This document shows positions 52,816 to 56,697 of a DNA stretch of 64,000 nucleotides, in pieces. The stretch lies in the NCBI GenBank assembly GCA_951406725.2, contig OX597830.1, positions 59,954,001-60,018,000 on the forward strand, read 5' to 3'. Source of the stretch: Octopus vulgaris (Eukaryota). The notes beneath the pieces are model-generated. The model did not search any database and was not told the DNA's origin. It saw only the letters and a program-made list of their open reading frames with translations. Position numbers and translations under genes: made by a program. Within the stretch, counting starts at the first letter, position 1. Each line of letters starts with the position of its first letter.

Positions 52816-53647
52816 CATAGATATTTATATTTATATGAACCCATGAATGAGCAAGGGAGAGTGAGAGAGAGAGCGAGAGACAGACAGACAGAGACAGAGA
52901 CAAACAGACAGACAGCGAAGACAGACCGAGAGATTAAAGTAGTGTTCTTGAATTCTGAAGTTTCTTGTTTCGAAACCTCCGAAAAAATACTATTTACTAT
53001 CTTGACGACACAAAGGAAAAACTATTGTGAAAAAGTGTAAGTAATGTCCGGATTTTAAATAAGAAAAACAAGTGATCAAATCTTACATTTTAATGAAACT
53101 TAATCGTTAATATAGCTTCCGTGATTATCTATGGCAACTTTCTATCTTCTCGTAAGCTCTTTAATCCCATTAATGAAAAACTCTTTCGGTTTCGAAGAGA
53201 GCTCAGCTTTAACTTCCTCAGTTATTTCGAGAGTTAATCCATCTAAATGATTCTGTAAGCTACGGAACAAATGATAATCTGAAGGAGCAAGGTTCGGGGA
53301 ATAAGGTGATGAGCAATTTTCTCCCAGTCAACTTCCTCAATCTTCTGTGACGTAATCTTTATAGTGTGGGCTCTTGTATTGACCTGATAAAAAAAGCCCA
53401 CTCCTTTTCGATTCACTAAAGCAGGCCTTTTTTTCTTCAAAGCAACGTTCAAACGCTCTAATTGCTGACAGTAGATTTGAGCATTGATTGTGGCATTAAT
53501 TTGTAGCAACTCAAAGTGAATGATTCCTTTGCAATCTCACCAAATAAAGAGAAAATCTTCTTCGCATGTAGTTCTCTTTTCAGCTGTGTTTGGTCCTTTT
53601 CCTCTTCACCTATGCCTACGACGCTTAAACATTTCGACAAAAGACCC

Positions 53648-54083
53648 GTTCTTTTTACATTATGTACATTTGACGGATATTTGTCCTCATTTTGTTCGTT
53701 GTTAACACAATATTTCGGCTGATAAACCCTCCAGCCTTCATCAGGTGTCTTGGGGAAATTTGGAACCTGGATTCTCATTCCTAAGGCATGTTTCGATCTT
53801 CTTCTTCTTCTTCTTCTTCTTCTTCTTCTTCTTCTTCTTCTTCTTCTTCTTCTTCTTCTTCTTCTTCTTCTTCTTCTTCTTCTTCTTCTTCTTCTTCTTC
53901 TTCTTCAGGTCACTGCCTGGAATCGAACTCGGAATCTTGGAGTTCTTAACCACTACGCCATATGCCCGCGGGCATATGAACGCTGGAGAGTATATCAGAC
54001 GAAACATTGTGTTAACATTCGTCAGATGTAAATAATGAAAATAATGTATATAATTCCTCCTCTCTTAAATATAGAACTGTATT
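53648..54083. mobile_element. Fold-back insertion: tRNA-like head, (AAG)n, hammerhead tail; 9-bp target-site duplication
   Basis: AAAAGACCC at 53639-53647 and 54084-54092; palindrome 53959-53978; hammerhead at 53705-53748. Confidence 0.8.
53705..53748 (-). ncRNA. Type-I hammerhead ribozyme motif (design 2), core intact
   Basis: ACAC-[CUGAUGA]-A-GGCUG-GAGGGUUUAU-CAGCC-[GAAA]-UAUU-GUGU. Confidence 0.75.
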
Positions 54084-55082
54084 AAAAGACCCATTTTTCA
54101 TCAGCGGTCACCAGTCCAAAAAAGGGGGAGATGAGTTCACGGGAATGAAGAGAAGAACAAATGTTCACTCGGGATTTACGGTTGGCTTCAGACAAATCCC
54201 GAGGTACCCACTTTCTGAGTTTTGGGACCTTTCCAAGCTGTTGAAAATGGCGGTGAACAGTTGAATGGCTTAAACGAAGATTGGTTACCAAATCTTCAAC
54301 AGAAACTGCATGATCTTTTTCGAGTTCTGCCAAAAGGAGCTTGTCATTAAACTCAACTGGACGTCCTGTTCGGGCCTCATCTTCAAGGCTGAAATCTCCA
54401 CTTGGAAATTTTACAAAGCATCTTCTGCAAGTTCTTTCATTCAGGTTCTCTTCTCCATAAGCTGAGTGAATATTTCGAGTCGTTTCAGCTGCAGAGTTCC
54501 TTTTTTTACACTCAAAAAGCATTTTGTGCCTCGAATGCTCCTTAGACGCTTTCATGCTCGAAGAGTCATAATTAGTGAAATTTCAATTAAATTATTCTGT
54601 AAGATTAAATTTAATAAGGTTAAATATGTCCAAATAGATATAAATATTATTTGATTGCATTAGACTTTCTAAAATACTGTTAAAGCATTTACAAATTGAA
54701 AATTTAGAAGTCCGGACATATGGATAGTCAGATATATTCACTTCACGTACTTTATAGCCATTGCTAACCGTCAGTATATGATGCAATTTTTATTCTCTGT
54801 TTGTCTGTCTGTCTCTTTCTCTCTGTCTCTCTCCCCCTCTCTCTCTCGCCATGTACACACGCACGCACACACACATACACACATACACACACAAAACTGG
54901 CGAAAGATATTGAATGTCTCTTACAAACGCATCTAAATACCAACGAATGAGATGTAAACCGCAATAGAAAGCAACAAATACAGCCAAATTGTGATAGTAG
55001 AAATGATTATGATATAGCTAACACGGTAACAACGTCAGAAAATGAAGTCAGAGCTACCATATATACAAATAAATATATTAAA

Positions 55083-55490
55083 TGCTCATGCAGAGAGAAA
55101 TCAAAATGCCCATTGATGAACCTCTGTATGAGTACAAATCTAGTATATAAATGTACCGTGCACAAAAGGGGAGGGCCGTATGTTTACATTGGGCAAACAG
55201 CTGATTCATTTAAAAATCGTTATCGCAACCGTATCGTCAGGTTCAAGAGAACCAATAAGAGACAGTTAACATCCTTTGGCCGATTTTGTATGGCGACTGA
55301 AGGAAGATAAAATCAAGTATAGCATAATTTGTTCAATAGTAAGGCACGCAAAACCATGTAATATCATTTCCAGGAGATGCCGAGGAATATCTGACTATTC
55401 TATGGACCAATGAGAAGATCATCAACAGAATTTCTGAAAGACTCTCAAGATGCCTACACGCATATAAGTGTACTTTCACACAATGCAGTG
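55083..55490 (+). pseudogene. Penelope-like retroelement GIY-YIG endonuclease remnant
   Basis: CSCREKSKCPLMNLC..NLVYKCTV...YVYIGQTADSFKNRY and later INRISERLSRCLH; frameshifted. Confidence 0.8.
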
Positions 55491-55884
55491 GGAATGAATT
55501 TAAGTAACTGTTAACATAATTTACTTTAAGGTATGAATGAATTAAGTTTGGCTTTAACCTCCCTATTCTTATAAACAATAAGTAACTATTTAATTCGCTA
55601 TGTGAACGTATACGCACCAAACCACAGGATGCTTGTATGAGCGAGTGTACATGCGCCATCCAGCTTGCACCAGGGCGTTTAAACACCCTCATCTCTTAAC
55701 GGTTATTTTAAAAACTTTTCTCGCTGTATTGCATGTTCGTTTCTTTTTTGCATCTGTGATTTGATTTGATTTCCGATCTTCTATATAAATGAAGATATTT
55801 CCTTCGTTTTGCTGCTTTTCTTTCTACGAAATGAGAAGATATATTTCGGAACTGTTACTTTAACGAGTTGTGTCTATTTCTCAC

Positions 55885-55930
55885 CCGATGAGACACATCT
55901 GCACCGTCGGATGTTCCTGAACCAGTTGTT
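55885..55930 (+). ncRNA. Degenerate hammerhead-like motif in the Penelope 3' region
   Basis: CCGAUGA...ACAUCUG/CGGAUGU stem...GAAC-CAGUUG; core damaged. Confidence 0.4.
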
Positions 55931-56121
55931 AAGTATCCCGTGAGGGATCGATCCATGTGTGCATCCCGAGAGGAATCAATTGTCGTGATTAATAAAAATT
56001 CTCGTATCTTCCATCTTCCTTCTTTCATTTACCATACATATTTAAGGAAACTGTGAAAGTGACCGTGCTTTACCGGTAAGCTAACAGGTATAAACCATTC
56101 GTTTTATTATCGAATACACAC

Positions 56122-56574: not shown

Positions 56575-56619
56575 GTATATGTATATATATATTTATGCAT
56601 ATATATATATATATATATA

Positions 56620-56697
56620 CATTATTTACGTTTGACGGATATTTGTCCTCATCTTGTTAACACAACGTTTCGGCTGATATACTCTCCAGCCTTCATT
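56620..56697 (-). mobile_element. Truncated design-2 hammerhead element
   Basis: AUGAAGGCUGGAGAGUAUAUCAGCCGAAACGUUGUGUUAAC...; lacks the 5' CUG. Confidence 0.7.

Follow-up and report, generated by a model that had tools for sequence, protein, structure and literature searches.

The feature that we followed up in Octopus vulgaris is a solo pseudo-LTR (pLTR) of a protein-coding, autonomous Penelope/Poseidon family, inserted head to head with an inverted short arm into a mariner transposase. It lies in a window of 64,000 nucleotides (contig OX597830.1, positions 59,954,001 to 60,018,000, assembly GCA_951406725.2), the whole stretch that was analysed, from a genome of 2.8 Gb that is rich in microsatellites. 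What is unusual is the tRNA-derived head with A- and B-boxes on a Penelope pLTR; each half of this combination has precedents in the available text of earlier papers (Sm-alpha, Cassandra-type elements, retrozymes). Judging from sequence patterns, we give an even chance to the proposal that the two boxes, at the 5′ edge of the pLTR, act as an internal Pol III promoter for solo pLTRs and the full coding element alike. The more far-reaching proposal falls just short of even odds: that an autonomous coding retrotransposon captured a tRNA-derived promoter at its pLTR edge, moved its whole unit of about 2.9 kb to Pol III, purged runs of four T (T4) from its ORF and translates uncapped RNA, with its solo pLTRs acting as self-promoting hammerhead SINEs. 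The features of the window, numbered from its first letter, are:

53036–54582, minus strand: degenerate Mos1-like mariner transposase, the host, split by the insertion (Pfam, mariner copies)
53639–53653, minus strand: target-site duplication, downstream copy, 13 of 15 positions identical to the upstream one (mariner comparison)
53654–54083, no single strand: whole insertion, a minus-strand long pLTR arm and a plus-strand inverted short arm, head to head (mariner alignment, family-module mapping)
53654–53703, minus strand: tail, ending at the upstream one of the family's two 3′ end points (30–40 bp extension absent from this arm)
53704–53749, minus strand: minimal type I hammerhead, with stem I of 5 bp, CUGAUGA, a bulged A, stem II, GAAA and a 2-bp palindromic stem III
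53744–53738 and 53716–53713, minus strand: the hammerhead core motifs CUGAUGA and GAAA, respectively
53776–53778, minus strand: ATG that opens the ORF in full-length copies (single open frame of the family majority sequence)
53798–53905, minus strand: (AAG)36 tract (sequence)
53906–53973, minus strand: tRNA-derived head, inferred +1 at 53973; the window copy lacks 13 nt of the anticodon-arm region
53919–53930, minus strand: B-box (aligns with the T-arm of genomic tRNAs)
53950–53960, minus strand: A-box (aligns with the D-arm of genomic tRNAs)
53960–53977, no single strand: palindromic junction of the two arms, 18 bp, centred on the 5′ edge of the head (sequence)
53976–54081, plus strand: inverted arm, comprising the hammerhead from core ATGA on, the tail and the extension of about 40 bp
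54084–54098, minus strand: target-site duplication, upstream copy, the mariner K-W-V-F codons (mariner comparison)
54951–56030, plus strand: 3′ part of another GIY-YIG retroelement family, whose 3′ region is long and T-rich (946 candidates)
56604–56696, minus strand: separate 5′-truncated fragment of the same pLTR, 87% identity (family-module mapping)

The order of modules on the minus strand that was given in the initial annotation, from A-box and B-box through (AAG)n and a linker to the hammerhead and tail, is borne out by the sequence, and so is the position of the insertion right after KWVF in a mariner ORF. The interrupted ORF matches the Pfam domains HTH_48 (1e-16) and Transposase_1 (8e-11), and uninterrupted mariner copies read through the site, their alignment running to 54083 and picking up again at 53653. 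The insertion had been placed at 53648–53972; it is real but larger than this, an inverted copy of the tail having been overlooked. Its target-site duplication, reported as 9 bp, is likewise real but extends over about 15 bp, of which the 9 bp form the perfect core, and the uninterrupted mariner copies rule out that these 9 bp are mere mariner coding sequence. A second copy of the tail, noted near 56620–56697, was found at 56696–56604; this fragment lacks the 5′ strand of stem I and the core CUG and thus carries no complete hammerhead. Both short fragments in the window (53976 and 56696) start at one same base of the hammerhead core, position 59 of the family tail.

The block from head to tail had been interpreted as a separate non-autonomous family, a free tRNA head fused to a borrowed tail, but the whole block proved to be the pLTR of an autonomous element. 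Of the first 30 head-anchored loci, 6 have the head about 35 nt past the stop codon of an RT/GIY-YIG ORF; in the larger head-anchored set, 18 of 87 have it directly behind the stop, and of 30 loci anchored on the ORF end, 27 have it after the ORF (8 of these 30 being near-identical copies on one contig). The pLTR also stands upstream of the ORF, as seen at loci found with the ORF 5′ part, so that a full element reads head, (AAT)n, ATG, hammerhead, tail, extension, RT, GIY-YIG, stop, 35 nt, head, (AAT)n, hammerhead, tail. The majority sequence, built from 78 segments, has one open frame of 835 aa. Since its ATG sits in the linker, the hammerhead, tail and extension are coding and form the N-terminus of the ORF, and the natural copies L242, L244 and L246 are open through hammerhead and tail into the ORF. 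The tail, with two fixed end points, is thus not a LINE end, in keeping with the original suggestion that a Penelope RT/GIY-YIG protein is the mobiliser.

The RT was identified in a natural copy by its Pfam match to RVT_1 (1.4e-10), and a PDB sequence search returned distant RTs only. Pfam gave no match for the C-terminal endonuclease, for which the best fold match to the predicted model (pLDDT 76.7) is I-TevI (Z 10.4, rmsd 2.5, 87 aligned); the top four VIA-align rows are all GIY-YIG-type nucleases, and the top Foldseek match is also of this type but weak (E 0.31). With an RT ORF, a C-terminal GIY-YIG domain, flanking pLTRs that carry a minimal hammerhead and an inverted truncated partner, the family belongs to the EN+ Penelope-like elements (PLEs), and its clade is likely Poseidon. 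No additional cysteine linker was seen between RT and EN in the 835-aa translation. Contigs from five organisms carry the stretch, with no RNA among its carriers in the index, and the viral contigs searched contained no relatives. Eight near-identical truncated copies on the small contig C31 (L070–L074, L086, L088, L089) share their flanks and therefore belong to a larger amplified unit, and a 534-bp tandem satellite of about 99% identity lies upstream of one long copy (L093:1-4497, reverse orientation).

A GIY-YIG remnant at about 55.1 kb had been put forward as the partner. This candidate was rejected, there being no blastn or tblastx match to the ORF, and the 3′ end of its relatives being different. 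In relatives of this neighbouring element, stem II of a hammerhead-like CCGAUGA ... GAAAC is long and the motif carries a large insert; the corresponding stretch of the window copy (about 55880–55990) is degenerate.

The hammerhead of the window has the CUGANGA, GAAA and UH core elements, stems I and II and the palindromic stem III of the minimal type I, and its anatomy matches that in PMC4209133. RNAfold recovers stems I and II (z −2.1), and Rfam makes no hammerhead call in the window or in family copies, where the motif falls below the model threshold. Self-cleavage is predicted after 53709, and inserted copies extend 50–95 nt beyond this predicted cut, so their templates were uncut at that hammerhead. 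Stem III had been said to stay palindromic (ACGU, AUAU); among 88 copies it reads ACGT in 51, ACAT in 16, ATGT in 12, ATAT in 1 and otherwise in 8, a pattern of CpG decay that rules out covariation.

Among the seven tRNA isotypes fetched, the family head is most similar to this genome's tRNA-Arg(TCT) (z 8.9), which together with the alignment of the two boxes to the D- and T-arms upholds the proposal that the head is tRNA-derived. The family majority sequence has both boxes intact, pairing in the acceptor and T stems is poor, and neither ARAGORN nor Rfam makes an above-threshold tRNA call for the head in the window or in family copies. No clear tRNA-like head was detected in 12 related elements from other organisms (best z 3.1 versus 6.7). 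A pattern search for other SINE heads in the fetched loci returned tRNA genes only; separately, another tRNA-like SINE head with a similar B-box was observed downstream at L022:1850-1900. The trinucleotide tract that follows the head is mostly (AAT)n or (AAC)n in family copies (AAT dominant in 16 of 18 scored), and other repeats have often inserted in it, parting head from tail (L025, L041, L046, L047, L048, L080, L243, L248). Just before the ATG, the pLTR has an unstructured A-rich leader that often ends in (AAC)n. We take this (AAT)n/(AAC)n leader to be reminiscent of cap-independent viral leaders; an Rfam match to a tobamovirus IRES over it is at chance level (E 5).

For the abundance of the short copies, we counted exact 24-mers genome-wide, obtaining 1745 for the head, 4762 for the hammerhead and 735 for the sequence just upstream of the head, with none for reversed-pattern controls; a rough extrapolation from the hammerhead count gives tens of thousands of short copies. 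The loci sampled were the first exact 24-mer matches on contig C1, a non-random choice, and 4 of 90 hammerhead-anchored loci were removed as duplicates. As had been predicted, head and hammerhead are linked and move jointly: of 87 head-anchored loci, 68 have the tail motif at most 700 nt after the head, against 1 of 65 controls. Short copies are commonly head-to-head pairs inside duplications of 10–15 bp. An inverted arm is present in 59 of 86 insertions, of 45 pairs, 42 carry the extension on a single arm and none on both, and flanking repeats of at least 10 nt border 32 of 46 pairs (a few of which are segmental duplicates) versus 4 of 138 controls. The 3′ ends of insertions fall into two groups, at the two fixed end points of the family. 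Dispersed singles and head-to-head pairs predominate, rather than the head-to-tail tandems that characterise non-LTR retrozymes; four matches to the junction of UTR and head, spaced 150 and 300 bp apart at G000:C2:16238319-16238939, probably represent a tandem satellite that arose from the edge of the pLTR. Copies are 5–8% diverged from the majority sequence, from which present activity cannot be concluded.

Could the short copies nevertheless be an independent SINE family, founded by fusion of a tRNA head to a Penelope tail? They do look like head-plus-tail SINEs, and the ORF is absent from 69 of 87 head-anchored loci, but an identical head stands within the autonomous element. Furthermore, after removal of 25 duplicate loci, all 15 variable sites tested were common to solo (98) and ORF-linked (41) copies without a fixed difference, and no separate solo subfamily was found (the smallest p among the 15 tests, 0.011, was at a CpG site). 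We regard this origin as largely refuted and scarcely credible. The short form has the tRNA-derived A/B-box head of a SINE, but this head is not peculiar to a non-autonomous form, mobilisation is not by a LINE and the 3′ end is not a simple repeat; it behaves like a SINE yet fails SINE membership because its head belongs to an autonomous element and no LINE is involved.

The positions at which insertions stop bear on the promoter. With positions counted from the inferred +1, 50 insertions reach +9; the ends of 39 of them lie in the interval −13 to +9, and of the 11 others only 6 end within the next 465 nt. The same is seen where a copy has both the 5′ end of the ORF and a direct pLTR extending to the head: of five such copies, four stop at or near the edge (−1, +4, +9, +42) and one runs on. 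A smaller cluster of stops, at +21 to +24, coincides with a TTAA palindrome. Genome-wide, perfect head-to-head junctions number 364, versus 440 UTR-linked heads, and the fetched loci contain 31 perfect junctions and none with the 2-nt bulge that would often be expected if a longer cDNA had folded on an extended hairpin. The head edge is, however, the third strongest terminal hairpin of the unit (−4.6 kcal/mol), so that structure alone could gather junctions there.

A further line of evidence is the scarcity of T runs. The sense strand of the majority sequence (2565 nt) contains no T4 and 13 T3 runs, the absence of T4 having P = 0.027 under synonymous shuffling, 0.011 under base shuffling and 0.004 with Phe codons freed. 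Across family copies, we counted 34 T4 runs versus 188 expected and 1 T5 run versus 43, although a dinucleotide shuffle lowers the T4 expectation to 70 per 59 kb, or about 3 per unit. The result rests on a single ancestral sequence, the copies therefore not being independent. T4 runs exceed expectation in 80 related ORFs (316 observed versus 212 expected, with 1 of 44 at zero), in mariner (34 versus 23) and in the neighbouring GIY-YIG family (217 versus 184). G4 runs are likewise absent from the unit (P 0.27 synonymous, 0.044 base shuffle). In a related Penelope family from a metagenome assembly (L371–L373, L422), an ORF stretch almost free of T4 is accompanied by a T-rich 3′ region and no tRNA head. 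At the true tRNA genes of the octopus genome, T runs follow. Taken together, the pile-up of 5′ ends, the shape of the junctions and the T4-free sense strand suggest a working Pol III promoter.

Three raw RNA runs, of each of which about 6 in 100 were read, yielded 8408, 5840 and 5499 reads, equal in both directions, of which 62–68 in 100 continue into unlike flanks. They show no pile-up of molecule starts or ends, in fragmented cDNA libraries that are unable to show a Pol III start, and at the head boundary the main loose end corresponds to the head-to-head junction. Because RNA made by Pol III has no cap, translation of the 835-aa ORF from it would need some other route. Against Pol III also speaks the one Penelope promoter dissected so far, which in the available text resembles the Pol II promoters of LINEs (PMC2377424).

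In the mechanism that we propose, transcription by Pol III would begin on or close to the G of GCCC. Starting in a 5′ pLTR, the polymerase would read about 2.9 kb without meeting a T4 terminator, and starting in a solo or 3′ pLTR it would yield a SINE-like RNA of about 0.3 kb. By analogy with Anolis Poseidon, the element protein would nick both target strands and prime cDNA synthesis at two internal positions. Those cDNAs that run off the 5′ end of the RNA would finish in the self-complementary GCCC-NN-GGGC, and such ends could pair with themselves or each other to form the head-to-head junction. Template switches, later or concurrent, would then shorten one of the arms; for the short arm of the window copy this would have been a jump from the palindrome to the hammerhead core across 3–4 nt of microhomology. 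For the hammerhead itself, the prediction is weak cutting, as a dimer or aided by protein, and it would be dispensable for making inserted copies. With a promoter that is internal and starts at the edge of the repeat, complete reverse transcription would regenerate the full pLTR.

Three other explanations of the head itself were weighed against this one. If Pol III at the head makes short RNAs only, and the coding RNA is supplied by read-through or a Pol II promoter, the translation problem is solved; the stop hotspot and junction counts require short RNAs only, and tandem, UTR-linked 5′ pLTRs do occur (L266, L238). Such a division of labour leaves unexplained both the T4-free ORF and the ORF-bearing copies that start at −1, +4 and +9, and we consider it unlikely, if well worth keeping in mind. 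We hold equally improbable that the element is an ordinary Pol II Poseidon whose head persists as a passive relic of some captured piece of tRNA or SINE, with 5′-truncated short copies piling up at the palindrome. To the extent of the published text available, PLEs ordinarily show 5′ truncation and inverted arms (PMC8557442); the strong hairpin, the missing G4 runs and the continuation of most RNA reads into flanks also agree with a relic. It accounts poorly for the perfect junctions in place of bulge-keeping ones, for a T-run depletion opposite in direction to that of relatives, and for two boxes that are intact beside poorly pairing stems.

The head might instead be a processing signal, RNase P cutting a longer Pol II transcript at the equivalent of tRNA position 1 and so setting the 5′ end of the RNA, and indeed 8 of 33 stops fall at +6, which is that position. 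The pile at +6 is, however, an alignment outcome when the two-base centre of the palindrome is reversed, perfect junctions require a cDNA that reaches the GCCC upstream of +6, and the head neither folds nor scores as a tRNA, which makes this a very remote prospect.

Pol III promoters in mobile elements have so far been described for short non-coding passengers, such as SINEs and Cassandra/Helenus. If the Pol III promoter reading is true, a coding retrotransposon on Pol III raises the question of how an uncapped RNA of 2.9 kb gets translated, and the element provides a concrete route of pLTR regeneration, a point left open by the Penelope promoter study. SINE-like elements could then arise with neither a LINE nor a founding fusion of their own, and an autonomous element and its SINE would be one family, the short copies of which would be annotated as tRNA SINEs although they are Penelope termini. 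The short form may already bear a SINE name in Repbase or Dfam. Our literature search turned up no Penelope element whose head is tRNA-like or of Pol III type; Repbase, Dfam or the supplements of papers may already describe the family. The octopus repeat surveys, in their available text, do not mention the arrangement. Ohshima and Okada reportedly described octopus tRNA-derived SINEs in 1994, two of them of tRNA-Arg origin; these possibly share their tRNA isotype with the Penelope head.

Among the systems closest to the element are other PLEs. As far as the available text of PMC11167929 (Anolis Poseidon PAc) and PMC8557442 extends, it shares with them a single ORF of RT and C-terminal GIY-YIG, a pLTR overlapping the ORF start, a hammerhead sitting at the start codon, a pair of 3′ end points 30–40 nt apart, an inverted 5′-truncated partner and AT-rich targets; unlike the octopus head, those PLEs are described there without tRNA-derived A/B boxes or Pol III transcription. 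In PAc, the ORF starts at the hammerhead, reverse transcription proceeds from two internal sites, and cleavage is unneeded for insertion (PMC11167929). The Penelope of Drosophila virilis offers a parallel to our reading of the octopus element, in that an internal pLTR promoter drives the downstream ORF, but that promoter is TATA-less and LINE-like, with an intron, and in the part of the paper available its authors see no obvious mechanism of pLTR regeneration except tandem formation (PMC2377424); a promoter starting at the repeat edge would supply one in the octopus.

The idea of a ribozyme SINE, raised in the initial annotation, has a precedent in Schistosoma Sm-alpha. From the accessible portions of PMC6765202 and PMC2770079, Sm-alpha and Sj-alpha likewise have a tRNA-derived Pol III promoter followed by a hammerhead, and have copies in the tens of thousands; they differ in being non-coding, with a canonical hammerhead and tandem arrays, and those portions describe no autonomous partner that has the head in common with them. 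Cassandra, Helenus and Ajax (TRIMp3) also carry a promoter for Pol III of small-RNA origin inside the terminal repeat, but according to the text available of PMC10886601 they are non-autonomous LTR elements of 0.3–1.3 kb, whereas the octopus element is coding and about 2.9 kb long. The animal non-LTR retrozymes (PMC7229834; bioRxiv 10.64898/2026.07.22.740005) are, in the available parts of both papers, short hammerhead elements that are regarded as non-autonomous derivatives of PLE pLTRs, with no mention there of Pol III or a tRNA head. They form head-to-tail arrays and circular RNAs, in contrast to the dispersed head-to-head pairs of the octopus family with their target duplications.
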